From positions 64,001 through 128,000 of IMG/VR virus record IMGVR_UViG_3300037424_000495: a stretch of 64,000 nucleotides of DNA. One strand, written 5' to 3'. This stretch comes from a virus. Lineage: Duplodnaviria > Heunggongvirae > Uroviricota > Caudoviricetes. The notes under the pieces were generated by a model. That model saw only the letters and a list, made by a program, of their open reading frames with translations. It did not search any database and had not been told where the DNA came from. This document shows positions 11,747-53,919 of the stretch, in pieces (within the stretch, counting starts at the first letter, position 1; every line of letters starts with the position of its first letter). The translations under genes were made by a program, and so were the position numbers.

Positions 11747-11816
11747 GTTCAAAGGACAGACTCAAGCGCGCCTTTACACAAAACTTAGAAACCAATACAA
11801 AACCCAAAGAAGCAAT

Positions 11817-14470: not shown

Positions 14471-14538
14471 AATCGTAATCTCCTTTATTTAAAAAGTAGT
14501 TTACGACGTGGAACCAAGCTAGAATTTGATACTAATTT

Positions 14539-15151: not shown

Positions 15152-15760
15152 ATGAATAAATGTGGAGCACCTATGAGAGGCACAACAATAAACACACACC
15201 TTGAAGAACTGTCCGACGAGCAGTTAATGGATGTACTGCAAAATGGTAATCAGGATGCCTTCACCATCCTTTATAGGAGGTATTACCCCAAAGTAAAGGG
15301 GAATGTCTGCAATCGACTTCGTGGTGAGTTAGCCGCCGACGCTGACGACATTGTTCAATCCGTTTTTCTTACTCTACATCGCTGTACCGAACGCTTTATT
15401 CGCAACAGTTTTGTATCCAGTTTTCTTTTGGCGACCACACACCGTCTCATTGTAAATCACTTGGAGCACGCACACAGGCAGAAACGGGATGTACGACGCC
15501 AAGGTTACGTCATCCATGAGAAATTGGCTGACAATCGTGCCTCGGAAAAGGCCGAAGCCGCCGAAGCCGCCGCCCATTTCCTTGAACGACTCACGCCGGC
15601 AGAGGCCGAAATCGTGCGTCTAATCGACATTGAAAGCAATACAGCCAAGGAAGCAGCCGTAATTATTAACGCCCCCATGACCACGGCTCAATGGCGATAC
15701 CGAAAAGCCTGGGAACATATCCGAGCACTCGCCGCACAGGAAGCCGTCGTCCCTGCATGA
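15152..15760 (+). CDS. ECF-type (sigma-70 group 4) RNA polymerase sigma factor
   Basis: LSDEQLM...GNQDAFTILYRRY, ADDIVQSVFL (region 2), EAAVIINAPMTTAQWRY (region 4). Confidence 0.85.
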   Translation: MNKCGAPMRGTTINTHLEELSDEQLMDVLQNGNQDAFTILYRRYYPKVKGNVCNRLRGELAADADDIVQSVFLTLHRCTERFIRNSFVSSFLLATTHRLIVNHLEHAHRQKRDVRRQGYVIHEKLADNRASEKAEAAEAAAHFLERLTPAEAEIVRLIDIESNTAKEAAVIINAPMTTAQWRYRKAWEHIRALAAQEAVVPA

Positions 15761-16032
15761 GTATCACGCTATTACATTGGCAACAATTGAAACTTGAAGG
15801 TTGTCCGCAGTGTGGATTACCTATAGATGATCTACAACATCAAAACCACTTTGTTAGCTGCCCATTATGTGCGTGGAAAATTAACGACGACCAACTACTT
15901 GGATGGATCGCCGGCGTCGCAGAATGTCGGATTTGTAGTAACAAGCAGACTTTTATTGCACCTTGTATTTGTGACCTAGATAATTTGGAATGTGATAACT
16001 GTGGAAACATGTCGGCCGAAATCATTAGCTAA
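15757..16032 (+). CDS. Multi-CxxC zinc-binding protein
   Basis: CPQC, CPLC, CRIC, CDNC; ATGA overlap with sigma gene. Confidence 0.6.
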   Translation: MSITLLHWQQLKLEGCPQCGLPIDDLQHQNHFVSCPLCAWKINDDQLLGWIAGVAECRICSNKQTFIAPCICDLDNLECDNCGNMSAEIIS

Positions 16033-16297
16033 CACTGTTGTTGTCAACATCCGAGAAAATGACTACGACATCCTTATCTGCCGCCCGTCGAAATGGGGTA
16101 ATCCATTTCCAATTGAGGGTAAGATAACACGCGAGAAAGCCTTACAAATGTACGAGATACACTTACGTCGAAGTCCGAAGCTCATTGCCGCGCTCCCAGA
16201 GTTAGCTGGTAAAAGATTAGGTTGTGTATGCAAGCCGCTTCCATGCCACGGAGACACACTAATTCGCTTACTCCACGAATTTTTTCCTGGCCTTTAA
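15992..16297 (+). CDS. DUF4326-family protein
   Basis: ICRPSKWGNPF...LAGKRLGCVCKPLPCHGD. Confidence 0.8.
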   Translation: MITVETCRPKSLANTVVVNIRENDYDILICRPSKWGNPFPIEGKITREKALQMYEIHLRRSPKLIAALPELAGKRLGCVCKPLPCHGDTLIRLLHEFFPGL

Positions 16298-16322
16298 CTT
16301 ACGTCAATACTGAAGTATAGTT

Positions 16323-16700
16323 ATGCAATTAGTTAAACCTGACGATCCGATCTTGCACTTTCCTTGCCGGGCTGATTTCACCGTCAAGATGCAAGACATC
16401 ATGAAGATGTTTGAAATTCTTCAACTCATGAAGGGATTGGGTCTAGCCGCTCCGCAGGTCGGTATCGACGCTCGTTTATTCATTACATATTGGGGCGAGG
16501 TATTCGTGAATCCCACCGTTGTAGGCATCAGTTATTCAATCAAGTCCAGTGAAAGTTGCTTGAGCCTACCTGGTGTATTCAAAGACAAACAACGATCATA
16601 CCGGATTCAATTGGCAGACGGCCGTATCTACACCAATGAAAAGGCTATCGTCATTCAACATGAAATGGACCACCTTAACGGCATTCTTATAACTGACTGA
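16323..16700 (+). CDS. def: Peptide deformylase (short form)
   Basis: GLGLAAPQVG, ESCLSLP, QHEMDHLNG. Confidence 0.9.
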   Translation: MQLVKPDDPILHFPCRADFTVKMQDIMKMFEILQLMKGLGLAAPQVGIDARLFITYWGEVFVNPTVVGISYSIKSSESCLSLPGVFKDKQRSYRIQLADGRIYTNEKAIVIQHEMDHLNGILITD

Positions 16701-16707
16701 GATCACT

Positions 16708-18006
16708 ATGACAGACATTGGTTGGCTTATCGCAGGCGGTGCGGCAATCTCCGGGACTATTGGTATGTTCTGGAACTATATTAAAAGTCTCTGGGCACAG
16801 CTTTCCAGCCGAGTGGTCGTTACCACAAAAATTGATGGTCAACTAAATTCAGCCGTGAATATGTATGTTTGGCAACATTTTAAACCAACAAAATTTGGCC
16901 AGAATTCTTATACCGGGTGGTCAACATTTGTTCGGCCAGTCAAACGAGTGCAACTTATTGCAATGGAGTCGTTCGGAGAGTTTGGCAAACTATTTTGGCA
17001 CGGTTGGCGGCCGCTCTGGCTCTCCCAAATACCAAAAGATAAGAACCAACACGGTAGCAACCCATCTGACGGGATGAAACTCACTTTTCTTCGGGGCACA
17101 TTCAATCTTGAAAAATTGATATTAGCTGCTGTCAGTGACTATAACCATATTCGCGCTGCCACGGATTCTAACACATCAAGCCGTTATCGAGTCATTCACG
17201 TCTTTGGCACAGCTAACAAAGTCGCCCAATCTAATAACGGCTGTAAAACCTTAGCTTCCGCCTCAGTCGGCACATACGATGCAATAAGTATGCTTGAAAA
17301 TCGTATTCTTGAATGGAACTACAATGACCTAGGAAATTGTCGGATGAACCACGGCAACGCACTCGGCCAACAAGCATTGTCCCCTGAAGCCGCCGACATG
17401 GTGGCTGAAATCAAACGCTGGAAAACAAGCGAAGATTGGTATAAAACCCGTGGAATTCCGTGGCGACGTGGTTGGCGTCTTGAAGGCCCGCCCGGCACCG
17501 GCAAAACTTCCCTTATCCGCGCGATCGCTGAAGATCTGGATTTACCAATTTTCGTCTTTGATCTTGCCACACTTTATAATGACGAATTACAAGAAGCATG
17601 GCAAAAAATGCTTGAAAATGTTCCTTGTATCGCACTTATTGAAGACATAGACGCCGTCTTTGACGGTCGCGAAAACAAAGTCGGCGGACATTTAACCTTT
17701 GACAGTTTGCTAAATTGCCTAGACGGTGTTGAACGGGCCGACGGCATCTTATTGGTAATCACCACGAACTATCCAGATAAATTGGATAATGCTTTAAGTG
17801 ATACTCGGCCAGGGCGAATTGATCGGGTACTAAAACTCCATGATTTGAATCGTGACGGTCGATATTTACTCTGTTCACGTATCCTTAAAGAATGGCCAGA
17901 ACTTTGGAATCAAGCCATTGAAGACGGAGCCGGCGAAACAGGTGCTCAGTTTCAAGAACGATTGACTCAAATCGCGCTGCACAGATATTGGAGAGATTCA
18001 GCATGA
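16708..18006 (+). CDS. BCS1-like AAA+ ATPase
   Basis: N-terminal TM; GIPWRRGWRLEGPPGTGKTS, LIEDID, LLNCLDG, TTNYPDKLD..L...RPGRID. Confidence 0.85.
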   Translation: MTDIGWLIAGGAAISGTIGMFWNYIKSLWAQLSSRVVVTTKIDGQLNSAVNMYVWQHFKPTKFGQNSYTGWSTFVRPVKRVQLIAMESFGEFGKLFWHGWRPLWLSQIPKDKNQHGSNPSDGMKLTFLRGTFNLEKLILAAVSDYNHIRAATDSNTSSRYRVIHVFGTANKVAQSNNGCKTLASASVGTYDAISMLENRILEWNYNDLGNCRMNHGNALGQQALSPEAADMVAEIKRWKTSEDWYKTRGIPWRRGWRLEGPPGTGKTSLIRAIAEDLDLPIFVFDLATLYNDELQEAWQKMLENVPCIALIEDIDAVFDGRENKVGGHLTFDSLLNCLDGVERADGILLVITTNYPDKLDNALSDTRPGRIDRVLKLHDLNRDGRYLLCSRILKEWPELWNQAIEDGAGETGAQFQERLTQIALHRYWRDSA

Positions 18007-18046
18007 ATTGTTTCAAGAACATCGAAGTCGTATAGTTGGAGGCACC

Positions 18047-18520
18047 ATGCCAAGCGTCTTAAAACCGTGGGTCGAACAATTGGGTCTACGCCATCAAGGC
18101 GTACTTATGGCCTGTGTACGTGGCTGTGATAGTGTACCCAAAGAAGACCCGACGAAAGCCCTAGCCCGTTGCTTTCGTGCAACAATTCTTCAATCATTCG
18201 ATCCAAACCCCACAAGCTTCATCGAAAACGTAGACGATACTGTTCTACGTGAGCGGATGGTCGCCGTCTTAAAGAATCACGATCATTACCCAATCCACTA
18301 TCTTTTGCACCTTATGCACGGGGCCGAAATCATTGGCTATAAATGGCCTGGTTCGGCTGCTATCTGCTGGCAATGGTTCTATGAAAAATTAGCAGCCTGT
18401 TTCCATTTACACCCGGAAACAGAAGAAGAATTAGATACTCGATTAGGAGCGTGTGAAGCAAAATTTGCTCAACAAGCCGCTTCTGCTTATGATCTACTAC
18501 ACCAGCAACTACACCAATGA
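18047..18520 (+). CDS. Hypothetical protein
   Basis: GGAGG RBS before ATG 18047. Confidence 0.65.
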   Translation: MPSVLKPWVEQLGLRHQGVLMACVRGCDSVPKEDPTKALARCFRATILQSFDPNPTSFIENVDDTVLRERMVAVLKNHDHYPIHYLLHLMHGAEIIGYKWPGSAAICWQWFYEKLAACFHLHPETEEELDTRLGACEAKFAQQAASAYDLLHQQLHQ

Positions 18521-18625
18521 AACAATAAGAATGAAACAACAAGAAAGTTGCAAAGACGCATCGCCCACATTGAAGCACAACTATTTGAATTGTACCGTGC
18601 AGCCTCAATTTTACACAAATATAAT

Positions 18626-18653
18626 TTGACTTTCACCAATTTTGATGTATAGT
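18626..18653 (+). promoter_or_regulatory. Sigma70-like promoter with internal palindrome, driving tracrRNA/cas
   Basis: TTGACT-N16-TATAGT containing CACCAATTTTGATG. Confidence 0.7.
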
Positions 18654-18660
18654 TTAATTA

Positions 18661-18780
18661 GTGAAGGTGACTTGTCACCTTGAAGGTGAGAACAGCTAAG
18701 AACTTCGAGAGTCTTGCAGCACTCACCAAAGTTTCATTTCAACTCGCCTCCCTGGCTTCCGAGCCGGGGAGGCATATTTT
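18661..18780 (+). ncRNA. Putative tracrRNA
   Basis: GTTTCATTTCAA (18731-18742) is the perfect complement of repeat nt 19-30; hairpins at 18664-18681 and 18686-18727; bounded by promoter and terminator-like hairpin. Confidence 0.75.
18746..18780 (+). terminator. Intrinsic terminator-like hairpin
   Basis: 12-bp stem GCCTCCCTGGCT/AGCCGGGGAGGC, TCCG loop, then ATATTTT. Confidence 0.6.
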
Positions 18781-18792
18781 GAAAGGTGTTGT

Positions 18793-20085
18793 ATGAAAAA
18801 GACTACAAATAAAGGCGAAATAAGCCTCGCCCGGTTTGAAATACTGGGTTTGGACAAAGAAACTCGACTCCGCTGGAAAAGTCTCGCCGATACAGTTAAA
18901 CGCATGACGAATTGTTTCTATCGCACTTGGCTTGTCTGCCACACGCAAGCAGGAAATGATATAAAAATCCGTGAATACATTGCAGCCATCGGTCAGTGGC
19001 ATAAGAACGGTGCCAAAGGTACTAAACCGCAATGTGAGGTGAAATGCTTGACGCCTGAAATAACGGCGTCTATCCGTAAAGCACTTGCAAATTATTCCAC
19101 CGTCAACACACGTTGTCTTGATCTTGCAATGCAACTTTTAGGGCGACGCTTAACGACATTAAAAGCCAGTAAAAGCAATTATCCACGCTGGATACGGATA
19201 CTTGCTGATGAAGGCGAGTATCCTAATTCAAGTTCACCGCTACCGATTCCATTTGATAAGAAGAATGCCGAATTGCTACCGCCCATTGACAACGAAGATT
19301 TCCAATTCAAACTCCGAATCGATAGACTCAACCGCCCCGGCAAAATGGCAACCAGTACGCTGGATACTTTTAAATTAAAAACCCGAGGACGACAAGTTGC
19401 CAGTCAAACCGCCATTCTCTGGAAAATTGCGTCCGGGGAGTATGATTTTTGCGGTTCAAATCTTGTCTATAAAGAGGCTAATAATAAATGGTTTTTACAC
19501 ATTTGTTACCGACAGCCCGCCACAACTACTGCGGCATTAAATCAAGATAAAATCGCATTCCTACATGCAGGATTAAAACAACCCTGGCGACTACGAATTG
19601 CCGGCTATAAATTTTCAGTTGGCGGCCCGACCGGCCAGCACATTGCATATATACGCCGGCAACTATTAACAAGCCGCTGGGGGCGACAGGAAAATACACG
19701 CTATACAAGTTCCTCTGTCCGTGGGCATGGCGTAGACCGTGCTATGAAACCACTCCATTTGCCACGTTTAAAAATGCGTTGGCGGGATGCTGTAAAAACC
19801 TGTAACCAACAAATGGTCGCCAACGTGATTAGACTGTGTCAAGAAAAACAATGTGGCCAATTAGTTTATTTTCAACCCGCCGAATCGAGACGTGACACAC
19901 GCTTCTTGCATCTCGCAGGCAAAATTCCAGACCGCCATGACAGTACGAGTTGGGATTGGTATCAAGTACAAAACATGTTGTCTATTAAATGTAAAGCGGC
20001 TGGAATTGAGTTAATTGTACATAAAATTGGCGAGAAAAACATCGATTTTTCAGATAAAAAATCACCACAACTCGCAGCCGCATAA
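18793..20085 (+). CDS. Cas12f/TnpB-like type V effector, predicted nuclease-dead and C-terminally truncated
   Basis: Adjacent to array; RuvC-I-like IAFLHAGLKQP (H258 at the Asp position), RuvC-II-like CGQLVYFQP (F360 at the Glu position), WDWYQVQNML..KCKAAGI, then a stop before the Zn finger and RuvC-III. Confidence 0.8.
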   Translation: MKKTTNKGEISLARFEILGLDKETRLRWKSLADTVKRMTNCFYRTWLVCHTQAGNDIKIREYIAAIGQWHKNGAKGTKPQCEVKCLTPEITASIRKALANYSTVNTRCLDLAMQLLGRRLTTLKASKSNYPRWIRILADEGEYPNSSSPLPIPFDKKNAELLPPIDNEDFQFKLRIDRLNRPGKMATSTLDTFKLKTRGRQVASQTAILWKIASGEYDFCGSNLVYKEANNKWFLHICYRQPATTTAALNQDKIAFLHAGLKQPWRLRIAGYKFSVGGPTGQHIAYIRRQLLTSRWGRQENTRYTSSSVRGHGVDRAMKPLHLPRLKMRWRDAVKTCNQQMVANVIRLCQEKQCGQLVYFQPAESRRDTRFLHLAGKIPDRHDSTSWDWYQVQNMLSIKCKAAGIELIVHKIGEKNIDFSDKKSPQLAAA

Positions 20086-20102
20086 CACCTTAACACTTTA
20101 TC

Positions 20103-21118
20103 ATTGTAGTTGACCCTAATTTGAAATGAAACAACAAGTCTAAGCGACTACATTGCAAAACGCTATGTATTGTAGTTGACCCTAATTTGAAATGAAACAA
20201 CAAGTGTATATTGATAATAGAGGGTGTTAAAGGCATTGTAGTTGACCCTAATTTGAAATGAAACAACAAGGACAGAGGGCGTAAGCGGCGGATGCTTTCA
20301 ATTGTAGTTGACCCTAATTTGAAATGAAACAACAAGATATACAGTAAAAAAATTTATAGTAGAGAATTGTAGTTGACCCTAATTTGAAATGAAACAACAA
20401 GTGTATATTGATAATAGAGGGTGTTAAAGGCATTGTAGTTGACCCTAATTTGAAATGAAACAACAAGGACAGAGGGCGTAAGCGGCGGATGCTTTCAATT
20501 GTAGTTGACCCTAATTTGAAATGAAACAACAAGATTTAAGCAACCGTCAAACCACGAATATAATTGTAGTTGATCCTAATTTGAAATGAAACAACAAGGC
20601 GAAGCCTTAACACGACTAGCGGCCCTAGATTGTAGTTGATCCTAATTTGAAATGAAACAACAAGGACTGGATTGCGTGCGTCTTTGAGGCCGTCATTGTA
20701 GTTGACCCTAATTTGAAATGAAACAACAAGAAACTTCTCGGTCGCGTGCGTCAAGAGTTATTGTAGTTGATCCTAATTTGAAATGAAACAACAAGTAACT
20801 GTTGGACAACCACGGCGCTATCTGGATTGTAGTTGATCCTAATTTGAAATGAAACAACAAGTACAGGAGACTTGAATCATGGTGGCTTCACATTGTAGTT
20901 GATCCTAATTTGAAATGAAACAACAAGGTGGCCCTTCTTTGTCCGCAGTAACGGATTGTAGTTGATCCTAATTTGAAATGAAACAACAAGGACTGCATTA
21001 CAGTCGGCTTTTCTATTTTGATTGTAGTTGATCCTAATTTGAAATGGAACAACAAGATGCAAAACTACATACGATTGGTACAAATATCACAGTTGACCCT
21101 AATTTGAAATGAACAACG
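20103..21118 (+). CRISPR. CRISPR array: 16 repeats (36 bp, last degenerate), 15 spacers of 27-30 bp
   Basis: Repeat ATTGTAGTTGA(C/T)CCTAATTTGAAATGAAACAACAAG; first repeat 17 bp after the cas stop codon. Confidence 0.98.
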
Positions 21119-21223
21119 TCTGTTCCCTTTGTCACCGCCCATTGAAAACAAAACGTAAATTTTGTGCTGACTGCGGCGCACCTAAGTTACGTCATTTTAC
21201 TGAACGCTTAAAGGAGACTTTAA

Positions 21224-21712
21224 ATGAATGTGAAAGAAATAAAACAACAAAGTTACAAGCAGCAGTTACTCGAATGCTTGGCACTCCGTCAACAGGGTGG
21301 GAAGAGCGCATACAAACGCGCTAAGATTCTTCTATTTGTCTACAACGACAATGATTTTCGTCTCGACCACAATAACTTTGACGACGACAAATTGGCTAAT
21401 ATCCTCGATACATACGTCGAAGATTTAGCGATACGTTTTTGGCATCTTAAAGCTCTACTTGAATACTTTCCCGACGAGCACCAATGGGCCGAAGGCCGGC
21501 TACGCTCCATGCTCGAAGAAATGCAAACCGCACAAGATGTTCAGCAAACAAAACCTATTCAACGGCGTAAAACAGCAACAGTCGCGGAGGTCGAAGCACT
21601 TAAAAAGCAACTTACACACGAAAAAGCCCGCTGCCAACGCCTGTTAAAAGAAAACATAGCGTTACGTGAAGAAAACCAACAACTCAAACAGCGTCTTAAA
21701 AAAGCGGCTTAA
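21224..21712 (+). CDS. Coiled-coil hypothetical protein
   Basis: AAGGAG RBS; C-terminal heptads. Confidence 0.65.
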   Translation: MNVKEIKQQSYKQQLLECLALRQQGGKSAYKRAKILLFVYNDNDFRLDHNNFDDDKLANILDTYVEDLAIRFWHLKALLEYFPDEHQWAEGRLRSMLEEMQTAQDVQQTKPIQRRKTATVAEVEALKKQLTHEKARCQRLLKENIALREENQQLKQRLKKAA

Positions 21713-21731
21713 TAATTCGAGAAAAGTAACA

Positions 21732-22007
21732 ATGATTCTTGCTTGTCAGTATTGTGGTGGTCTTGAAGTCGCAATTATTGCGGGCCTCATTGCTGTTTGG
21801 GGTTGGGTCAGTTGGATATGCGCCCGGCTATTCAAGCGTCGTAAGAAACCACCCACCATAATACCACAAGACTGCTTACAAGAAGGCACCTGGGAAGACG
21901 CGATTCATAATTCATATAGCTACAATCTCACCGCACAAGCTGAAGATCGTCTAACACGACCCCGGGCTTCAATAACTATAATTGACGAAAGAGACTCATT
22001 CCAATGA
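21732..22007 (+). CDS. Membrane-anchored hypothetical protein
   Basis: N-terminal TM segment. Confidence 0.5.
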   Translation: MILACQYCGGLEVAIIAGLIAVWGWVSWICARLFKRRKKPPTIIPQDCLQEGTWEDAIHNSYSYNLTAQAEDRLTRPRASITIIDERDSFQ

Positions 22008-22134
22008 ACCAGGCTGTTCAAGACTGTACCATTGCTTTGCGACAATTTAGCCACGCTGCACGTGATTGCGCAGCCATTCTTAAAAATCTGAACGCATCAC
22101 AAAACTATAAACAACAGTATCGTCGCTATTTAAA

Positions 22135-22368
22135 ATGGCTGAAACGTCGGAATTACAAACGATAATTGTAGCTTGTGCAAATTGTAAGAATGATATTCAT
22201 ACGCCGGCAGGACGGCGTATTATTTGTCTACATTGCGGCTTCGATTACGGCCACCTGTTAAACATGCCAGTCAAATTAACCATCGACCCTGATCGAATAA
22301 TCGACGGGCCAACTGAATATAGCTTAACGTATGCCTTGAATTTAATAACTGAGTGTCTAGCTACATAA
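22135..22368 (+). CDS. Small Zn-ribbon protein
   Basis: CANC...CLHC. Confidence 0.5.
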   Translation: MAETSELQTIIVACANCKNDIHTPAGRRIICLHCGFDYGHLLNMPVKLTIDPDRIIDGPTEYSLTYALNLITECLAT

Positions 22369-22372
22369 AATT

Positions 22373-22651
22373 ATGAAATTTGCTTATCGTCCATCAGTCG
22401 ATCAATACGACGAACTGTGTGAAGACCTAATTGACAAAGACAATGGCCACATCACCGTTTGCCGTGAGGTTGAAGAAGCATATCAAAATCTAATTCTTGC
22501 CGCGCCTCGTGGTCTAGAACTTGCCGAAGAAATTCTACGAACCTGTGATCCTACAACCGGTCGAATACTGAGTGATATAACACGGCGCGAAATCGAACCC
22601 ATTAGAAAACTAGCAGAAGCATTTCTAGTCCAAGTAAAAGGTTTACAATGA
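22373..22651 (+). CDS. Hypothetical protein
   Basis: ATGA overlap with rtcB. Confidence 0.55.
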   Translation: MKFAYRPSVDQYDELCEDLIDKDNGHITVCREVEEAYQNLILAAPRGLELAEEILRTCDPTTGRILSDITRREIEPIRKLAEAFLVQVKGLQ

Positions 22652-23796
22652 ATACCGTCACCACGGAACAAATTCCAATCAAACTTTGGCTTGACGACAT
22701 TGAAGACGGAGCTATGGCCCAATGTCGCAATCTAGCCAACCTTCCTTTCGCCTTTTCCCATGTTGCCATCATGCCGGATTCGCATCAAGGTTACGGTATG
22801 CCAATCGGCGGTGTTTTAGCTACACGCGACGTTATTATTCCAAATGCAGTCGGAGTTGATATTGGTTGTGGCATGTGTGCAGTGAAAACATCACTGACTG
22901 ACATCGATGTTACACACCTAAAAAGAATTTTAGGTGAAATCCGCAAAACAATTCCGGTTGGTTTCGCACACCACGCAACACCGCAAGATGCCGCTTTCAT
23001 GCCTAGCCACGCAAAAATGTCTATCTTCACTGTCTGCGGGCATCAATTTGAAAACGCTCGCACACAGATTGGTACACTAGGCGGTGGCAACCATTTTATT
23101 GAAATCCAAAAAGGCTCTGACGGGCATATCTGGATCATGATCCATTCGGGTTCCCGTAATCTAGGGAAACAAGTAGCCGATTGGTACAATAAACTTGCAA
23201 TAGAATTCAATGAAAAATGGCACACTAAAGTTCCGAAAGAATGGGAACTTGCTTTTCTTCCTTACACTACAGATGTTTGTCGGGATTATCTCAATGATAT
23301 GCAGTTTTGTGTAAACTTTGCGTTTGCAAATCGCAAGTTAATGATGGATCGAATTTGTGATATTTTCCAATGTACTACTGATCCAATGATAAACATTGCG
23401 CATAACTATGTGGCTCTTGAACGTCATTTTGGACGAGATGTTTGGGTCCATCGTAAAGGTGCGACACTTGCCAGTGAAGGAACAATAGGACTGATCCCCG
23501 GTTCCCAAGGCACAGCGTCGTATGTTGTAAAAGGTAAAGGAAACATTCATTCCTTCCGGTCCTGTTCACACGGAGCAGGGCGTAAGATGGGCCGTAAAGA
23601 AGCCCAACGGACTTTGAATCTTGCTGACGAGCAAAAGAAACTCGACGATCTAGGAATTCTTCACGCTATCAGAGGCTCAGATGATTTAGATGAAGCGAGT
23701 GGAGCCTATAAAGATATCAATGTTGTCATGAAGAATCAAGAAGACCTAGTTGACATCATCACCGAACTGCGGCCTTTGGCAGTTATCAAAGGCTAA
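22648..23796 (+). CDS. rtcB: RtcB RNA 2',3'-cyclic phosphate/5'-OH ligase
   Basis: MPDSHQGYGMPIG, PNAVGVDIGCG, GTLGGGNHFIE, HSGSR, HNY, HRKGAT, HGAGR, DEASGAYK. Confidence 0.96.
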   Translation: MNTVTTEQIPIKLWLDDIEDGAMAQCRNLANLPFAFSHVAIMPDSHQGYGMPIGGVLATRDVIIPNAVGVDIGCGMCAVKTSLTDIDVTHLKRILGEIRKTIPVGFAHHATPQDAAFMPSHAKMSIFTVCGHQFENARTQIGTLGGGNHFIEIQKGSDGHIWIMIHSGSRNLGKQVADWYNKLAIEFNEKWHTKVPKEWELAFLPYTTDVCRDYLNDMQFCVNFAFANRKLMMDRICDIFQCTTDPMINIAHNYVALERHFGRDVWVHRKGATLASEGTIGLIPGSQGTASYVVKGKGNIHSFRSCSHGAGRKMGRKEAQRTLNLADEQKKLDDLGILHAIRGSDDLDEASGAYKDINVVMKNQEDLVDIITELRPLAVIKG

Positions 23797-23797
23797 C

Positions 23798-23968
23798 ATG
23801 AAAATTGTCAAACGAGAAAATGGCTACTGGGTAACAGATTTTCCACTTGACGGCTGTCTTGATTGTGGACCATACGAAACTAAGACCCAGGCGGAAGAAA
23901 CACAGCGCGGATTACAACGAACATTTGACCATTGGGACGATAGAAAATACTGGACTGTTGAGAAATGA
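23798..23968 (+). CDS. Small hypothetical protein
   Basis: In operon chain. Confidence 0.5.
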   Translation: MKIVKRENGYWVTDFPLDGCLDCGPYETKTQAEETQRGLQRTFDHWDDRKYWTVEK

Positions 23969-24183
23969 AAATCAAGTTCGAGGAGCTAAAAGTCTTCTTA
24001 AAAGAGCACTGGAGACTTGAATTAAGACGGGCTGATCCAACACTCAAGGGACGATGTCGTTGTGGCGGTGCATGGAAATCTGGCTTTATTATTGAAGGTA
24101 TTTTACCTGGTTATCGACACTCCACATATCGTTTCAGAACATTGAAAGAAATAGCTCGACGCTCAAAATATAAAATCAAATAA
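23965..24183 (+). CDS. Small hypothetical protein
   Basis: ATGA overlap. Confidence 0.55.
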   Translation: MKIKFEELKVFLKEHWRLELRRADPTLKGRCRCGGAWKSGFIIEGILPGYRHSTYRFRTLKEIARRSKYKIK

Positions 24184-24189
24184 ACACAA

Positions 24190-24690
24190 ATGCCTTATCG
24201 ATTCCACCGTTGTCAGACACATCCGAAAATTCCCGACATGCAGGGTTGGTATCTCGAACTACGCCCCGACGATCCAGAAACACTCATGAAGATTCATCGC
24301 GGGGTAGCCGCTCTCTACTTTGTCAAATTCGGCCAAGGCCCGCACTTTAAAGATAATCCACATTACTCCTGGAGTAAACTCGCGGCTCAGTGGCTCGTAA
24401 GTGTTGAACGACTGCTATGGTCCGGCCCAGTCTTCGTCAATGAAAACGGTGGTATATTACCGGCTGATTCCATTATTAGTCTTGAAGTTGTTGAATCCGA
24501 ACACATTGATTGGGACGTAAGGTACGAGGACGAAGTCATCACAATCGCCCGTTGGCCAGAGGGGAATCACTACTACCTAGCATCTAACAAACATCGTATC
24601 TTCGTGCCCGATAAATATAATCACTATGCGGATGCTCGTAACACCGCACTTCGCTTTGTGACGGCAGATAGAATAAAAGGCAACTGTTAA
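24190..24690 (+). CDS. Hypothetical protein
   Basis: In operon chain. Confidence 0.6.
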   Translation: MPYRFHRCQTHPKIPDMQGWYLELRPDDPETLMKIHRGVAALYFVKFGQGPHFKDNPHYSWSKLAAQWLVSVERLLWSGPVFVNENGGILPADSIISLEVVESEHIDWDVRYEDEVITIARWPEGNHYYLASNKHRIFVPDKYNHYADARNTALRFVTADRIKGNC

Positions 24691-24692
24691 CC

Positions 24693-24929
24693 ATGACAAA
24701 AGATGATTTAATAGTCGGTCATGTATATTCCGCAAAGAGATCAAAACGTGACTTCTTTGGTTTCTTAAATGACCGACAAATAAAGTGGATAGGAGGCGAC
24801 ATGATTCAATATGATTCGCCCACTGTAGCAATGGGCAGGCACTACCCTAAAATTACAATGGAGAAATTCTTAAAATGGGCCAAAGAAGATGTGACAAAGA
24901 TAATGCCAGAAGGAGAATGGCGAACGTGA
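24693..24929 (+). CDS. Hypothetical protein
   Basis: In operon chain. Confidence 0.6.
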   Translation: MTKDDLIVGHVYSAKRSKRDFFGFLNDRQIKWIGGDMIQYDSPTVAMGRHYPKITMEKFLKWAKEDVTKIMPEGEWRT

Positions 24930-24963
24930 TGCACTAAAACACATTCCCCAGACTGAAATACTT

Positions 24964-25638
24964 TTATTCAAATTCATAAGAAGGAGGGATATTTTTATTT
25001 TCAATATCAGCCCCCTTAATATATTTAATTCTATCTACCAAACCTCCACACGAGTTAATGTAGATGCTTTTGTCATCACACCAGCGAATACGTTTTTCAA
25101 CTTTTTTCACTGCAATGTCTCTGGGTTCCGTCCAAAGCACGTCTGATTTATCTACAACCACAATTGCAGCATAGGTAAATAAATCATTCTCATTGTAATC
25201 TCTAGGCTCAGGTCGGAATGCGGCTTTATCCCCTGTAACGCCCAAATAAGGCGTATAATTCAATTCTTTTGAGTCCATAGTCCACAAAATCGAATTCGGC
25301 ATTGGTTGCACAGGCTTGCATTTAGGCCCTTTAGGATCAACATAATAAAAAGGAACCGTTTGTGCCACCTTTAAATTGTGTGGACTGTTCCAAGGTTCAT
25401 CCAATTTGAATTTCTTGTAAAGAGCTAATTCTGTGCTTGATCCATACTGAAGCAAATCTACACGCCAACTCAATAGTGGATTGCCTTCCCTATCTGTGAT
25501 GTTGGCTGGCATTTTTCCATTTACATGCAAATAATCATTCATTGATATGCTGATAAAACCAAGATGTTTACGGTCTTCATTTTCAGCATTCTTACACCCA
25601 CAAACAAAAAGACACAATAGTAATAGAAACTTTTTCAA
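24964..25638 (-). CDS. DUF1559-like planctomycete lipoprotein
   Basis: Lipobox-like signal; PLLSWRV.LL...LYKKFKLDEPWNSPHN; W.EP.DI. Confidence 0.75.
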   Translation of the reverse strand: MKKFLLLLCLFVCGCKNAENEDRKHLGFISISMNDYLHVNGKMPANITDREGNPLLSWRVDLLQYGSSTELALYKKFKLDEPWNSPHNLKVAQTVPFYYVDPKGPKCKPVQPMPNSILWTMDSKELNYTPYLGVTGDKAAFRPEPRDYNENDLFTYAAIVVVDKSDVLWTEPRDIAVKKVEKRIRWCDDKSIYINSCGGLVDRIKYIKGADIENKNIPPSYEFE

Positions 25639-25639
25639 T

Positions 25640-27748
25640 TTATAGGCTCCTATCCAATACTAAATCAACACCACGAATCCAATCATCGGAACTGATCTTT
25701 TCAGTCTTTGAATTATTTGAGCGAATTTGAATATCTGCGGCCAAAATATCAGATTCAAAAATTGGATCAAATAAATTATCGACTTTATTCACCGTGACAA
25801 ATTTATACGCCACAAGTTTAATTGAAGCCACAGACTCCATTTGAAAAGTAGTCTTTGGTTTTGATGATTCATTTTGAATCAAAGATTGGGATAATGTATT
25901 TACTGGCCAAATTAAATTTGTTTGGGCACAAAATTGTGTCGGTTGCCATTCATCATGTCTAACAATAATTGTGCAAACATAAATAACCAATCCTGGTCCA
26001 CGATTGACTAAGCATAAAGGTTCTACCCTCACCACTTTGGCCTCACCTTTACTATCGGCGGTTACTGTAACATATCCATCCCATGAATAATTTACTTTCT
26101 TCATTTTGCCATCAGGAATAGGATTTGTTGATGAAACACTAGTCCCCGAAAATGTATAAGGTGGGTCTGGATTATTACCTTTTACAATTCTTATTCCAGA
26201 TAAACCACCGCTTGGTGTTCCTCCTAAACCTGGGCGACTAGGATCAGCCGACGTGAATATAACACTAACCGTTACTTCATATTCAATATCGTGTTCGCTT
26301 CCGGGAGCCATTCCTGTTGCCCAAGCCTGGATTTCACCGCCGGATTTACTGCCTCCAACAGTATTGCATGTATAACCATTGGTGCCAAATAGCATTACAA
26401 CAACTTGATGAGTACCAACAGGTCCGCCTTCTTGACCTATTTTTACCTTCTTTAAGTCTTCATCGTATCCACTTGCATCACCGGCCGGTTGACCAAAATC
26501 ACCAGTTGCACACCCGCCGGAAATATCCGCGCCCGCCGCTGAATATGGATTAGTCCCTTTTGTAGTGTGAAATCTAGCCCTAACAGGATTAGTCGGTTCG
26601 CCTGCTTGTGCATAATTTCCATTTAAAGATTCTAGTGGAGGTTCATCCAAAATATAAACTATATCATCATACAAGGTTACATCTGCCGCTGAATAAACAT
26701 TTTGATACAAATAAATGTACTCATATTCTGTTGGAATAATTCTATTTGTTATTTCCAATTGCTGCGCTTCATTCCTAGTAATTGTTCTGTCAGGAAATTC
26801 ATCTACGTTAATTGTCGATTCAGCGGTTGAACCTTGACTTGATGTAGATACAACTAATTCGGCTGTTCCTGGAACAATACTATCAATACTTCCACTACCG
26901 TAAGTAGTGTTAGTAATTGCATCAATGAAATTATTTCCCATAAACGTCGTTCGACTTGTCGCGGTTTCATTCCATGCTACACTTTGATAATCTTGTTCCC
27001 CTGCAATCATTTCTCCAAAGCGATTACGATAAATTGTCAATTCAGTTGGTGTTTCGTGTTCAGTATCAGTATCGGAATGTGGCGGTGCAGGATCACCACG
27101 CGAAACAATACTGCCATTAACCGAACTAACATAGGGAAAAAGAACAGTATCCCCACCAACAATTGTTTCTGTGCTACGCCAAGCATTTTTAAGGTCAGGC
27201 GGATCAGTGCAAACAAGTGTTGGAGTATTGACTGTAGATAAATTTGGCAAAGCATCGCTGTTGTAAGTTAATATGCCACCATCCATTGTGGCTAACATAC
27301 CTGCCGGGTCGGGTGTTATGCCCGCTGGAGGTCCAACTGGTATTGGTGCGATCACCACTTTAGAACCTGCCCCTATGGTCAAGGTATTTTGGCAAATTGA
27401 TGTAGCGGTTAAAGTGCCGGATACAATCAGATTGCCAGTGCCGAATATAGGTCCGATGGTTTTGTCGCCACCTGTGACATTCAATGCACCGTTATTGATT
27501 GCATTCTTAATGCTGATATTCTCAACCGGATTTCCCGTAAGTTGAATCAGATTGATCGTGGCATCCGATTCTATGGTCAAATTTTCTACAGAAATAAAAT
27601 TAGCCGTCAAGTTTCCGCCGTCCACCGTGATAGCACTTGGATCAACCGGATAGGTAAGAGACAACAATGTCCGATCTTCCAATTGATCGAAGTATAATTT
27701 CCGACTGCGGGATATACTTGCCACCTTACGTTTTTTAGAAAACCACAT
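25640..27748 (-). CDS. Secreted surface protein with planctomycete-type N-terminal export motif
   Basis: RSRKLYFDQLEDRTLLS; S/T/G-rich beta-type segment QNTLTIGAGSKVVIAPIP. Confidence 0.75.
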   Translation of the reverse strand: MWFSKKRKVASISRSRKLYFDQLEDRTLLSLTYPVDPSAITVDGGNLTANFISVENLTIESDATINLIQLTGNPVENISIKNAINNGALNVTGGDKTIGPIFGTGNLIVSGTLTATSICQNTLTIGAGSKVVIAPIPVGPPAGITPDPAGMLATMDGGILTYNSDALPNLSTVNTPTLVCTDPPDLKNAWRSTETIVGGDTVLFPYVSSVNGSIVSRGDPAPPHSDTDTEHETPTELTIYRNRFGEMIAGEQDYQSVAWNETATSRTTFMGNNFIDAITNTTYGSGSIDSIVPGTAELVVSTSSQGSTAESTINVDEFPDRTITRNEAQQLEITNRIIPTEYEYIYLYQNVYSAADVTLYDDIVYILDEPPLESLNGNYAQAGEPTNPVRARFHTTKGTNPYSAAGADISGGCATGDFGQPAGDASGYDEDLKKVKIGQEGGPVGTHQVVVMLFGTNGYTCNTVGGSKSGGEIQAWATGMAPGSEHDIEYEVTVSVIFTSADPSRPGLGGTPSGGLSGIRIVKGNNPDPPYTFSGTSVSSTNPIPDGKMKKVNYSWDGYVTVTADSKGEAKVVRVEPLCLVNRGPGLVIYVCTIIVRHDEWQPTQFCAQTNLIWPVNTLSQSLIQNESSKPKTTFQMESVASIKLVAYKFVTVNKVDNLFDPIFESDILAADIQIRSNNSKTEKISSDDWIRGVDLVLDRSL

Positions 27749-35361: not shown

Positions 35362-35580
35362 ATATATATATATATATATAGGCCGGGCGCGTGATCGGTA
35401 AGCCGGGCGGACCCAGAGCAAGGCCGGGCGGACCCAGAGCAAGGCCGGGCGGACCCAGAGCAAGGCCGGGCGGACCCAGGGCAAGCGGGGCGGACCCAGA
35501 GCAAGCCGGGCGGGCGCGTGATCGGCAAGGCCGGGCGGACCCAGGGCAAGCCGGGCGGACCGAGGGCAAGGCCGGGCGCA
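35362..35580. repeat. (AT)n tract followed by GC-rich 20-21-bp tandem repeats (GCAAGGCCGGGCGGACCCAGA, about 9 units)
   Basis: Directly visible; lies where the + and - gene blocks converge. Confidence 0.9.
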
Positions 35581-50014: not shown

Positions 50015-50917
50015 ATGCCACTAATTTGTTATAAATCTAAATCATTTCGTGCGGACACTCAAACACGTATCGATCAGGCTAATCAAATAATTGCAGAGTA
50101 CCAAGCACAAGGTTTCAAATTGACGCTTCGCCAAATATACTACCAGTTTGTTAGCCGCGATTTGATTCCAAATACGGTGCAATCATATAAGAATCTCGGT
50201 GATGTCGTGAATGATGGTCGTTTAGCCGGTTTGATTGATTGGGGTGCAATTGAAGATCGCACACGAAATTTGCAGAGCAGTCCACATTGGTCGAGTCCCC
50301 GGGCCATTGTTCGAGCTTGTGCCGATCAATTTGCTGTAGATTTATGGGCGACGCAGGAAAATTATGTGGAAACCTGGATTGAAAAAGAGGCGCTTGTTGG
50401 AGTAATTGAAGGTGTTTGCTCTGAATTAGATGTACCCTATTTTGCTTGTCGAGGGTACACGAGTCAGAGTGAAATGTGGGGCGCAGCGCAACGCTTGCTT
50501 GAACGAGAACAACGTGGTAAGAGGACAACGATTATTCATTTAGGCGACCACGATCCAAGCGGCATTGATATGTCACGGGACATTCAAGATCGATTGGAAA
50601 TGTTTGGATCATCGGCTGTGATTCGCCGTATCGCATTGAATTACGATCAAATTGAGAATTATAATCCGCCACCGAATCCAGCGAAGACAACTGATTCGCG
50701 GTATGAAAGTTATCGTGTGTTACATGGCGAAGAAAGTTGGGAACTTGACGCTTTGGAACCGCACACGATTGTGGAGTTAATTCGTGGCGAGATTGAATCA
50801 CATATTGATCGTGACACTTGGGACGATGCTTTACAACAGCAGGATTTAGGCCGCCAGCGTTTAAATCTTGTGTCACAAAAGTGGCACGATGTTATCGGAT
50901 ATTTGGGCGAGAATTAA
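50015..50917 (+). CDS. Topo VI-A/Spo11-like winged-helix + Toprim protein (Mini-A-like)
   Basis: TLRQIYYQF, WIEKEAL, CRGYTS, HLGDHDPSG, WELDALEP. Confidence 0.75.
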   Translation: MPLICYKSKSFRADTQTRIDQANQIIAEYQAQGFKLTLRQIYYQFVSRDLIPNTVQSYKNLGDVVNDGRLAGLIDWGAIEDRTRNLQSSPHWSSPRAIVRACADQFAVDLWATQENYVETWIEKEALVGVIEGVCSELDVPYFACRGYTSQSEMWGAAQRLLEREQRGKRTTIIHLGDHDPSGIDMSRDIQDRLEMFGSSAVIRRIALNYDQIENYNPPPNPAKTTDSRYESYRVLHGEESWELDALEPHTIVELIRGEIESHIDRDTWDDALQQQDLGRQRLNLVSQKWHDVIGYLGEN

Positions 50918-50959
50918 AGGTCGTATCTAAGAATCAATAAAATATAGACTAGCTGGAAG

Positions 50960-51181
50960 GTGGAGCTTATGCCAATTGAACGAATAATAAAAGGCGACTA
51001 TGAATTTCTGATCTGGGAGAAATGTCTTCAAGTCCACTGTGGTGATGATTGGTCAACGGTATTTAATCTTCAACGGCCTGTGACGCCGGGAGACATTGAA
51101 TTTATTCTTCGTTGTTTGAATGTAGGCGAATCGAACCACAAAAATAAAGTCAGAAAAGCTATGGCGTTTCTTAATGATTAA
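50960..51181 (+). CDS. Small hypothetical protein
   Basis: + strand chain. Confidence 0.45.
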   Translation: MELMPIERIIKGDYEFLIWEKCLQVHCGDDWSTVFNLQRPVTPGDIEFILRCLNVGESNHKNKVRKAMAFLND

Positions 51182-51218
51182 GATAAATAATCATACTTGA
51201 CTAAGGAGTTGTGATTAA

Positions 51219-51416
51219 ATGTTTAGATACCTTCTATTACTCATGATTCTGGCTTTATTGTGTGGTTGTAGTAAGCCTGTCCACTGTGATTACGTGTACG
51301 TTGATCGTGATACTAATCAAATTTATGTTGTACGGCGTGTAACTAGCACGTCACCAGAATTCGCACAGTCTCGCTTTATTTTATTAAAAGTCAAGGAAAG
51401 TCCTTCTCTAAAATAG
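51219..51416 (+). CDS. Small lipoprotein
   Basis: AAGGAG RBS; LLCGC lipobox. Confidence 0.55.
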   Translation: MFRYLLLLMILALLCGCSKPVHCDYVYVDRDTNQIYVVRRVTSTSPEFAQSRFILLKVKESPSLK

Positions 51417-51445
51417 TTAATCCGGCGTATAAAATACGGAGGTAG

Positions 51446-51628
51446 TTGACCTGCATGAAATATAGGTTAGTACAGGATGAAGATTGCCATTGGTATTGTA
51501 TTCCAGTTTCTTTAGTGACTAAGTTTAAGGATGCTTTGTACAGCGAGTCAGAAGACTTCATTGAGCAATTCGGTGAATACAGAGTTGATAGTCCAAAAGC
51601 AATTGAATTCGAGAAACCAGGGTGGTAA
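51446..51628 (+). CDS. Small hypothetical protein
   Basis: GGAGG RBS; LVQDEDCHWYCIP. Confidence 0.55.
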   Translation: MTCMKYRLVQDEDCHWYCIPVSLVTKFKDALYSESEDFIEQFGEYRVDSPKAIEFEKPGW

Positions 51629-51928
51629 ATGTTCATTCATGTAGAAGTAAACTGGCAAGACTTTCGCGGTGACGTTGGGGAAGATATTGCTTCTATTGAA
51701 AGTCGGTTTAAGAGTGGTTTTTGGCCTAACAAAGTAGAAATATATAATTATAAGAAATTCTCTTGTCTGCTATCCAGTTGGTGTGAAGTGGCTTTAGAGT
51801 TCGATTTATGGACCGATGCAGTGCAAAATGCTGCCTATGAATTGCTAAATAGGTGGAGTCGCACTAGTAGTTTTCACGTAAGTTATACCGAAATCCAGCC
51901 GCCAGTATTGATTGCAACGCCCTTATGA
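51629..51928 (+). CDS. Hypothetical protein
   Basis: + strand chain. Confidence 0.5.
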   Translation: MFIHVEVNWQDFRGDVGEDIASIESRFKSGFWPNKVEIYNYKKFSCLLSSWCEVALEFDLWTDAVQNAAYELLNRWSRTSSFHVSYTEIQPPVLIATPL

Positions 51929-52137
51929 AACAACTTAATCCGTCGATGATACCCGAGATTCGATCCGCAAGTCATCCGCATCCAGTTGATGAGGTGCGTG
52001 CTTTATCAGCACAAGAAATAATGGAGCGAGCGGGCGTGACGAATATGTTAAAAGGAAGGATACTTCGTTTAAAGTTGTTTATACATACATACGCACCGGA
52101 GAAACAAGCAAATGCCCAAACCAGAAAACATTCATGA
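51925..52137 (+). CDS. Small hypothetical protein
   Basis: ATGA overlap. Confidence 0.45.
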   Translation: MKQLNPSMIPEIRSASHPHPVDEVRALSAQEIMERAGVTNMLKGRILRLKLFIHTYAPEKQANAQTRKHS

Positions 52138-52405
52138 GTATTTTAGTCTTAGTTACGCGAGTTGGCTAGTGTTGCCACGAGTTATTTTGGAAGCAATGCC
52201 GGAAGACTGGCAGCGTCAATTCGTTGAAATGTTGGATCAGGTGAATGAGACATTTGATTGGTGCCCACAGGATTTAAGCTTTCAAGTAATCGGCCGGCAG
52301 CGTGGACGGCTAACATCTTTACCTGAAGTTTTATGTAGTTATCGGCACCCGGTGCGCAAGGACATTGAAGCGTTAAGATGCGACGGCAAAATATCTGGTC
52401 GCTAA
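52112..52405 (+). CDS. Hypothetical protein
   Basis: FSLSYASWLVLPRVILEAMPEDWQ. Confidence 0.6.
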   Translation: MPKPENIHEYFSLSYASWLVLPRVILEAMPEDWQRQFVEMLDQVNETFDWCPQDLSFQVIGRQRGRLTSLPEVLCSYRHPVRKDIEALRCDGKISGR

Positions 52406-52422
52406 ATATGTCTACCGTCAAT

Positions 52423-52458
52423 TTTGTAGTTGATCCTAGTTTGAAATGAAACAGCAAG
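52423..52458 (+). CRISPR. Solitary CRISPR repeat unit
   Basis: TTTGTAGTTGATCCTAGTTTGAAATGAAACAGCAAG; 33/36 identical to the GATCC array variant. Confidence 0.9.
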
Positions 52459-52473
52459 AAGGTTTAATCAACA

Positions 52474-53919
52474 ATGTTTTTACGCATTTGTAATCCTGGT
52501 GAAGCACCTGTTGAAGGTTACACGTTACTCGGTGTCAGTACAACTCGGAACTGCGGTATTGCCGGTACAATTGGGCAGTTTGGCAGCGGTGCAAAACATG
52601 CGATCAATGTGATTTTGCGGGCTGGCTTGAAAGTGATAATTTACTGTGGCCCGACGAAACTGGAATTTCTTACGTGTGACGACGAAATCAATGATGGCCT
52701 CACAACGAAGGCTGTCAAGCGTGTATTCTGTCGCATGGGTGGCACGTCTACGCGGACAATCGACTTAGGTTGGGTGCTTGATTTTGGTGCAATTGACTGG
52801 ACTGATCTTGGCATGGCGTTGCGAGAATTCATCAGTAATGCAATTGATCGCACAATTCGTCAGACAGGTGATTTTATTCCGGCGATGCGTGATGGTGATT
52901 TATCTGTCACTATGGTTGAAGATGAGAAACTGCGGGCGAAGACTGGGTACACCCAGGCGTTTATTCAGATCAATCCAGATGTGGAACAGTATCAACGGGA
53001 ATTATCACGGCGTTTTCTTCATTTTTCTGAACGTCCTGAGCAGGTTAAGCAATCACTTCTTCCGAAGGCAAATCGCAATTTGAACGGCAGTAAGGCCGCG
53101 ATGATTTATCGTGAAGGCGTATTTGTACGGGAGTTTAATGTCACCGATGCAAAATCGGTGTATGACTACAATTTTAGGGCAGATGAATTGCGAATTGATG
53201 AAAGTCGCAATAGCAGCGAATATGATGTGAAGGCTGCATGTGCAAAACTAATGCGAAAAGCAGCAGCTACCGAATTGGTGCCGGTTTTTAGAAGTCTCGT
53301 TGAAAAGGAAGAGATATTTGAAGCCGGACTAGACCCGTACTACATCTGTCCGTCATGGGAAACGCCGGGCGATGAACAGCAACAAAATTGGAAGCAGGCT
53401 TGGCAAACAGTGGCCGGTGATGCCGTGCTTTGCGGTCCGTCGGAAACGGTGATTGAATTTGTGGAGCATAAAGGTGTGGTAGCGAAGTCCATTAAGGTTG
53501 CGGCGTTGGTGGAAGTGGCCCGTCGCTTTGGAATTTTAACCGGCGATCAAGTATTGACCGACAATGAGCGCAAAGGTCGTGAAGTGCTTCCGGCTAGTGA
53601 TACAGCAATACAGGCTGTCCATACTGTGTGGAATTGGCTTGAGAAATTGCAGTTAATTAACGGGGCGACCATACCGCCGGTGGGTTGTTTTCGGGACGTG
53701 GTGAATTCAGGACAACGTCTTCTTGGTTACTGCGACGGTAAAGGCGTCTATCTGGCTGACGACCATGCTAGTGGCGGGGTGAATAAATTGCTTTTAAAAA
53801 CCGCACTGGAAGTATGTGTTCACTGGATCACAGGAGCGACAGATGGCAGCCGAGATGTGCAAGACTTTCTACTTCGGACGGTCATTGAGATCGTCACAGA
53901 GAATTGTTTGCTGAATTAG
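52474..53919 (+). CDS. GHKL-type ATPase with permuted motif order
   Basis: RICNPG and IGQFGSGAK at the N-terminus; LREFISNAID about 75 aa later. Confidence 0.7.
   Translation: MFLRICNPGEAPVEGYTLLGVSTTRNCGIAGTIGQFGSGAKHAINVILRAGLKVIIYCGPTKLEFLTCDDEINDGLTTKAVKRVFCRMGGTSTRTIDLGWVLDFGAIDWTDLGMALREFISNAIDRTIRQTGDFIPAMRDGDLSVTMVEDEKLRAKTGYTQAFIQINPDVEQYQRELSRRFLHFSERPEQVKQSLLPKANRNLNGSKAAMIYREGVFVREFNVTDAKSVYDYNFRADELRIDESRNSSEYDVKAACAKLMRKAAATELVPVFRSLVEKEEIFEAGLDPYYICPSWETPGDEQQQNWKQAWQTVAGDAVLCGPSETVIEFVEHKGVVAKSIKVAALVEVARRFGILTGDQVLTDNERKGREVLPASDTAIQAVHTVWNWLEKLQLINGATIPPVGCFRDVVNSGQRLLGYCDGKGVYLADDHASGGVNKLLLKTALEVCVHWITGATDGSRDVQDFLLRTVIEIVTENCLLN

Follow-up and report, generated by a model that had tools for sequence, protein, structure and literature searches.

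A solitary copy of its own CRISPR repeat before a conserved gene in a phage with a dead Cas12f homologue

The tailed phage considered here (Caudoviricetes; IMG/VR record IMGVR_UViG_3300037424_000495) is represented by a complete viral record of 129,143 bp, of which the second half, a stretch of 64,000 nucleotides running from position 64,001 to 128,000, forms the window to which all coordinates below refer. The window holds a CRISPR array, together with a nuclease-dead homologue of the effector Cas12f and a predicted trans-activating CRISPR RNA (tracrRNA). A single further copy of the array repeat lies 31.3 kb downstream of the array, on the same strand, in the gap directly before a conserved phage gene. 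A preliminary description of this DNA had picked out this copy and proposed that it gives the effector a regulatory role within the phage genome. We consider here what the solitary repeat is, whether it is likely to engage the tracrRNA and effector, and how far a regulatory function, rather than a chance origin, may account for its position.

A solitary repeat in an intergenic gap

The repeat and its immediate surroundings comprise the following features:

52423 to 52458, + strand: solitary repeat unit, full length, 33/36 identical to the T12 variant of the array repeat
52441 to 52452, + strand: 12-nt tracrRNA-pairing core, exact, complementary to the anti-repeat at 18731-18742
52456 to 52462, + strand: purine tract AAGAAGG, read from the sequence as the likely Shine-Dalgarno (SD) stretch of the 481-aa gene
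52474 to 53919, + strand: 481-aa conserved phage gene (P0002) with >800 homologues, possibly a GHKL-like ATPase
52112 to 52405, + strand: 97-aa open reading frame (ORF) with a C-terminal-only match to phrog_3527

The array repeat is 36 bp long and occurs in a T12 and a C12 variant; the solitary repeat (TTTGTAGTTGATCCTAGTTTGAAATGAAACAGCAAG) departs from the former at positions 1, 17 and 32 and from the latter at four positions, and so carries the T12 type. Shuffled sequences gave no match to the repeat at three mismatches or fewer, and a scan of the whole genome allowing up to 12 mismatches found the unit to be the sole full-length copy outside the 15 array repeats and a degenerate sixteenth. 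Alignment and genome scan therefore bear out the preliminary description of one 36-bp repeat with three mismatches, some 31 kb from the array and in the same orientation. No partial repeat or hidden mini-array was found within 100 nt on either side, where local-alignment scores lie inside the genome-wide null. The unit is intergenic, occupying a gap of 68 nt in which 17 nt separate the stop of the 97-aa ORF (52405) from the repeat and 15 nt, as had been described, separate the end of the repeat from the ATG of the 481-aa ORF. It is thus a solitary repeat unit in the sense of SRUFinder, which takes identity and coverage of at least about 90% to a known repeat, no other repeat within 100 bp and an intergenic position as the defining properties. 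The unit is a genuine copy, diverged and delocalised, of the type V-F-like repeat that the phage itself carries. A small ORF starting at an ATG inside the repeat (52446-52493) has no SD and was dropped as a functional candidate.

Two properties of the unit bear most directly on a possible function. The core, TTGAAATGAAAC, is intact at 12/12 positions, in agreement with the earlier claim that pairing with the tracrRNA would be preserved. The AAGAAGG tract, which is the only SD-like stretch available to the 481-aa ORF, spans the junction between the repeat and the 'spacer' that would follow it. The segment in the position of a guide thus contains both the SD and the AUG of what is probably a co-transcribed leader, and the earlier observation that this 'spacer' spans the start codon holds.

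All ORFs flanking the unit are on the + strand. Terminator prediction over 50800-52700 found none, the stretch from the upstream genes to the repeat included, and neither the repeat nor about 670 nt upstream of it showed a promoter-like site on the + strand. Given this arrangement, the unit is most likely transcribed by read-through in an operon. No riboswitch-like or competing structure was found in the leader of the 481-aa gene (fold z = +1.6).

The preliminary description had placed the repeat in the leader of a GHKL ATPase gene. Its position before the 481-aa ORF stands, but the name is weakly supported: the protein has no Pfam match and no PDB match, and the label relies on a Bergerat-like motif (E118-x3-N122-x2-D125, ExxxNxxD) and on language-model neighbours, some of which carry HATPase_c_3. 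Upstream, the 97-aa ORF overlaps a 70-aa ORF which, taken with the C-terminal-only phrog_3527 match, suggests that it may be part of a split gene. Both belong to a neighbourhood (50960-52405) that holds six small + strand ORFs and has a different gene content in each relative. Synteny with four relatives delimits this hypervariable slot between a phrog_6247 'topoisomerase' gene and the 481-aa gene; in one relative (L011) it holds a 501-aa HATPase_c_3 gene.

The CRISPR module and other repeat handles

The module that could act on the solitary unit, and the further units found outside the array, are as follows:

18793 to 20085, + strand: nuclease-dead homologue of Cas12f (P0001, 430 aa), with profile matches to Cas12f chains
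18660 to 18785, + strand: predicted tracrRNA, with a promoter-like site at 18626-18653, anti-repeat at 18731-18742 and terminator at 18746-18773
20103 to 21121, + strand: CRISPR array of 15 repeats and a degenerate sixteenth, beginning 17 nt after the effector stop
15152 to 15760, + strand: extracytoplasmic function (ECF) sigma factor, homologous (E = 1e-8) to the effector-adjacent sigma of relatives
12287 to 12303, + strand: truncated repeat, an exact 17-nt 3' handle (TGAAATGAAACAACAAG), with a small ORF ending 5 nt upstream
18516 to 18543, + strand: pair of 14-nt handle fragments in tandem (13/14 and 14/14), covering the stop of the ORF at 18008-18520

The 430-aa effector has no Pfam match, and its identity comes from a profile built on 30 homologues, which matches AsCas12f1 (E about 5e-27), other Cas12f chains and a published 'nuclease-deactivated Cas12f'. 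In the alignment, the catalytic D of RuvC motif I (D225) corresponds to an invariant L257 of the effector and the catalytic E of motif II (E324) to F360, the C-terminus is truncated and ends before motif III, and no D or E is invariant across the 31 effector homologues. On these alignments the effector is a dead Cas12f (dCas12f) of the nuclease-dead branch of type V-F, as had been supposed. An ECF sigma gene lies directly upstream or within 2 kb of the effector in relatives L009/L010, L012/L016 (from a Thermoguttaceae chromosome), L013, L176 and L177; in the window the distance is 3 kb, again on the upstream side. A 170-aa ORF beside the effector was considered as a sigma factor and rejected.

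There is good evidence for a tracrRNA with an anti-repeat, another element of the preliminary description. The region folds more stably than shuffled sequences (z = -4.6) and ends in a strong terminator, and its scaffold is kept upstream of the effector in six loci, those of this phage and five others, with compensatory changes in 8/18 pairs. In three lineages with different repeats (this phage, the jumbo phage L015/G003 and L176), the stretch 3' of a conserved CCA(A/G)AGT is complementary to the respective repeat handle, and it is this co-variation which fixes the pairing core as repeat positions 19-30. The predicted cofold with the tracrRNA reaches -63.9 kcal/mol for the solitary repeat and -63.6 kcal/mol for array repeats, compared with -51.0 kcal/mol for the tracrRNA alone, so that the solitary repeat would gain about -13 kcal/mol from the duplex, as the array repeats do. 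A regulator resembling a CRISPR RNA (crRNA) would need a repeat-derived handle that can load the effector; in silico, the handle and its pairing with the tracrRNA are predicted to be intact. A segment complementary to the anti-repeat, which an mRNA-derived non-canonical crRNA would need, is also present, in a transcript suggested by the operon context.

The array itself has fifteen 36-bp repeats at 20103-21056 and the degenerate sixteenth at 21086-21121, and its 15 spacers include 13 unique ones. Spacers 2 and 3 recur as spacers 5 and 6 (20205-20300, 20402-20497) through a 197-bp duplication inside the array, and the C12 repeat variant is found near the effector and the T12 variant distally. 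Like the solitary unit, the array is intercistronic. Its degenerate sixteenth repeat provides the only possible ATG (21109) of a 71-aa Zn-ribbon ORF (21086-21324 region, + strand), which is conserved 3' of the effector in array-less relatives and overlaps the next gene (21224-21712) out of frame. Judged from these gene starts, repeats are placed in the translation initiation region of a downstream gene twice in this phage, once by the solitary unit and once by the last repeat of the array.

The whole-phage scan for more solitary repeats that the preliminary description had proposed gave no second full-length copy. A scan with the 3' end of the repeat did reveal truncated handles at two sites, 12287-12303 and 18516-18543, which had been overlooked. 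An exact 17-mer has a chance expectation of 1.5e-5 and an exact 14-mer one of 1e-3. The first of these handles lies 123 nt upstream of a well-supported SD and ATG at 12426. An ATG within this handle (12291) shares the frame of the 12426 ORF and has no SD, and the handle could be a handle-only crRNA unit. About 85 nt separate the tandem handles from the tracrRNA promoter, which lies downstream of them. All three units outside the array are on the + strand, keep the 3' handle and are followed by AAG or AAAG.

Similar units are found in related systems. Relative L176 has a 24-unit array (11403-12850) composed of two repeat families and handle-only units that share only their last 15-22 nt, which identifies the handle as the conserved functional part in this clade; its tracrRNA has a matching anti-repeat and the terminator architecture seen in the window. 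The 364-kb jumbo phage (L015/G003; IMGVR_UViG_3300037067_012889), whose effector is 33% identical to P0001, has two tracrRNA copies and three mini-arrays (199372-204545), along with remote degenerate or truncated units at 137404-137465 and 9926-9943. Their distances from the main locus are 62 kb and 190 kb. Each follows closely on the 3' side of an ORF, and the one core change among them (C to T) would preserve pairing through G-U. Remote, diverged or truncated units are thus recurrent in the clade, which argues for use over accident.

In the array-less prophage relatives L012 (7925-7960), L013 (7960-7990) and L009 (9560-9600), the tracrRNA scaffold is followed by GTTTC-TTTT-G(A/G)AAC. It is possible that this represents a fusion of anti-repeat, loop and repeat, that is, a natural single guide, which would run into the effector leader. 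For the Thermoguttaceae prophage relative, searches for repeats complementary to the anti-repeat and for targets of the putative fused guide gave matches at chance level only.

The wider neighbourhood of the module (13436-27748) also encodes an integrase, DUF4326, a peptide deformylase, an AAA ATPase and an RtcB ligase, and a DUF1559-like protein near the module points to a Planctomycetota host. Elsewhere in the window we noted a tRNA at 3036-3103 (+ strand) that Rfam recognises (47.8 bits) and ARAGORN does not report, a 21-nt tandem repeat of 8.4 copies at 35402-35578 (GCCGGGCGGACCCAGAGCAAG), and an element of roughly 60 nt (CAACAATGAAAAAGTTTTATAAACAA...GAGAGACCACATATCCCATAAAG) present in two copies about 131 nt apart, at 45347 and 45478 (+ strand).

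Possible roles of the solitary unit

We favour, tentatively and with a probability of roughly 0.4, a reading in which the solitary repeat is an operon-embedded crRNA-like unit that draws the tracrRNA and dCas12f onto the 481-aa gene's leader. Operon read-through would transcribe the unit, its intact core is predicted to pair with the tracrRNA, and dCas12f may then take up the leader as a non-canonical crRNA borne on the mRNA. Since the first ~20 nt of such a 'guide' would be the SD tract and start codon of the gene, assembly of the ribonucleoprotein, or processing by RNase III or 3' trimming, would occlude or sever the translation initiation region, and more tracrRNA-dCas12f would then mean less expression of the 481-aa gene. 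Among these steps, pairing with the tracrRNA is the one that has computational support, and the remainder we infer with non-canonical crRNAs as a precedent.

Several observations weigh against this reading. The distance of 11 nt between the SD tract and the ATG is long, and the closest homologue of the 481-aa protein, at 68% identity, has a sigma-70-like promoter and no repeat at this position; a promoter of this kind is found at the position of the solitary repeat in two relatives. Cas12f would, moreover, have to take up an RNA extended by 1.4 kb at its 3' end. Neither the 12287 unit nor the remote units of the jumbo phage lie beside start codons, so translational control is not the general role of the extra units. 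Finally, the three substitutions in the unit all fall outside the core, a distribution that is not significant (p about 0.28), and the unit sits exactly at the right edge of the hypervariable slot.

This last position, which the preliminary description had also overlooked, is a place where a recombination scar would be expected, and it keeps alive a reading of the unit as a remnant. The unit would then be a neutral relic, a repeat or repeat-spacer fragment brought to the slot junction by illegitimate or repeat-mediated recombination and tolerated between genes, its tail happening to form part of an SD. Each relative examined has a different stretch between the phrog_6247 gene and the homologue of the 481-aa gene, the unit has neither a promoter of its own nor a target, and it has diverged by 8% from the array consensus in a pattern of substitutions that fits neutrality; no Cas1 was found in the phage. 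We consider such an origin only somewhat less probable than the favoured reading. Against it, all the units outside the array keep the guide-proximal handle and the transcribed orientation, two of them are exact and hence either recent or maintained, and an unrelated phage, G003, shows the same phenomenon with changes that preserve pairing. A second assembly also carries an identical 481-aa protein behind the same 68-nt gap, a comparison that concerns gap length only.

If the unit is instead a source of guides, then these might act on DNA. To look for targets within the phage, 15 spacers and three pseudo-guides were compared with both strands of the whole 129-kb genome, allowing up to 7 mismatches over the full length, up to 2-4 mismatches over the first or last 16-20 nt, and exact seeds of 10-12 nt. 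Only chance-level matches were found in the phage genome, with no seed of at least 11 nt and no near-full match. A DNA-targeting form of the regulatory role that the preliminary description had envisaged for the dead effector within the phage genome is not supported, and the search it had suggested for targets of the downstream 20-mer gave none in this genome. Beyond the phage, neither the exact repeat nor spacer 3 nor the pseudo-guide 20-mer had a match in IMG/VR, and no DNA relatives were found among INPHARED phages. A single metagenome scan with the 18-mer core gave, among the matches listed, only chance single matches, whose identity over the 18 nt upstream reached 9/18 at most. In a sample of 401 Planctomycetota genomes, outside which the true host may lie, we found no array built on this repeat.

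These searches bear on a second alternative, namely that the unit yields a trans-acting, delocalised crRNA whose ~20-nt guide (AAGGTTTAATCAACAATGTT) sends dCas12f, with or without the ECF sigma, to DNA that is not part of the phage. The target might be a locus of the host. It might also be the homologous leader in repeat-less kin phages that have a target-adjacent motif (TAM) there instead, which would amount to superinfection exclusion by CRISPR interference. The truncated units of L176 and the remote units of G003 share the layout of a handle followed by downstream sequence, all units are placed immediately 3' of ORFs, from which read-through would express them, and a trans-acting role fits the non-leader positions of the other units better. 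The guide is sense-strand and would pair with the template strand. The array spacers likewise have no targets within the phage, which gives the impression of a system that looks outward. The 20-mer is, however, without an exact match in IMG/VR, the homologous leaders of the 481-aa gene in the available relatives are dissimilar, and a guide that doubles as SD and start codon would be heavily constrained, all of which makes this alternative unlikely.

One may also picture a combination, which we regard as decidedly speculative, in which placing a handle beside resident sequence is the clade's way of making 'self-derived' guides. The leader and start of an essential conserved gene would become a crRNA, the phage's own copy would be spared because the repeat occupies the TAM position, and dCas12f, possibly with the ECF sigma, would be directed to the corresponding site in co-infecting kin phages without the insertion and silence or rewire them, while the same assembly throttled translation in cis.

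Solitary repeat units in viral intergenic regions are known as RNA anti-CRISPRs (Racrs; PMC10651486), and the unit could in principle be a decoy that titrates a host Cas12f/tracrRNA system with the same repeat. We consider this very improbable: as a decoy it would be dwarfed by the phage's own effector, tracrRNA and 15-repeat array, the unit is promoterless as described above, cognate cas genes are present rather than absent, and no such array was found in the sampled Planctomycetota genomes. No anti-CRISPR annotation was found among the genes neighbouring the repeat. Hardly credible is a self-templated, RNA-guided promoter, in which the crRNA would bind its own DNA with the terminal G of the repeat as TAM and recruit sigma and RNA polymerase as dCas12f-sigmaE does (5'-G TAM, with the transcription start 46 bp further downstream; PMC13472631). 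This phage and five relatives all have an ECF sigma linked to dCas12f and the repeat ends in the appropriate G, but transcription would then begin near 52504, which is 30 nt into an ORF with a conserved N-terminus, and the published clade has no tracrRNA.

Relation to known systems

The favoured reading, an mRNA leader taken up as a crRNA, has its nearest precedent in the non-canonical crRNAs, where pairing with tracrRNA converts mRNAs into guides, as established for Cas9 (PMC8224270); the same conversion has been shown for reprogrammed Cas12 tracrRNAs (PMC11246509). In these, as would be the case here, an mRNA segment complementary to the anti-repeat serves as the repeat part of the guide and the adjacent mRNA as the 'spacer'. 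The phage unit differs in being a near-complete copy of the repeat rather than a fortuitous partial match, in an effector that is a phage-borne dead Cas12f, in a would-be guide that covers a translation start, and in being known from sequence alone. Like the Racrs, it is a lone CRISPR repeat located between the genes of a virus. Racrs, however, usually have their own promoter, are unlinked to cas genes and mimic host repeats, whereas the phage unit is promoterless and accompanied by its cognate effector, tracrRNA and array.

The handles of the atypical crRNAs of CRISPR-associated transposons (CAST), of CreA/CreR, crlRNA, scaRNA and tracr-L load an effector for a non-immune task. Like the units described here, the delocalised or atypical crRNAs of CAST, CreA/CreR, crlRNA (bioRxiv 10.1101/2024.12.27.630466), scaRNA and tracr-L have repeat-like handles outside the array that are often truncated or diverged. 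Their guides differ in having a target that can be recognised, often a partial one, in the same genome next to a protospacer-adjacent motif, and this phage has none.

For the effector, the closest comparison is with dCas12f-sigmaE (PMC13472631), in which a Cas12f with a dead RuvC site and a truncated C-terminus is likewise linked to an ECF sigma. The published systems come from Bacteroidota, use a single guide RNA without a tracrRNA and have targets upstream of genes. The present system is phage-borne, with relatives in Planctomycetota, employs a dual RNA of tracrRNA and array, is closest to AsCas12f1 and has no target that we could find in the phage; the linkage to sigma is thus shared, and the single guide and upstream target are not. 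The same publication remarks on a dCas12f cluster that has CRISPR arrays.

None of the elements is new by itself: solitary repeats and delocalised crRNAs have been described, as have mRNA-derived guides and dCas12f-sigma systems. Their combination in a phage-borne, tracrRNA-dependent, sigma-linked dead Cas12f with operon-embedded handles fused to translation starts was not found in the literature compared. If the unit is only a scar, then it is a caution that solitary repeats in array-bearing phages need not be anti-CRISPRs or regulators. If, on the other hand, the leader is truly loaded, then it would be a natural CRISPR handle built into an mRNA, tying a virus-encoded, dead and tracrRNA-dependent Cas12f to the expression of a core phage gene, and such systems would take guides from operon transcripts outside the array. 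The locus itself defines a phage/Planctomycetota branch of sigma-linked dCas12f that keeps both tracrRNA and arrays, and this branch is a possible intermediate between canonical type V-F immunity and single-guide, RNA-guided transcription.

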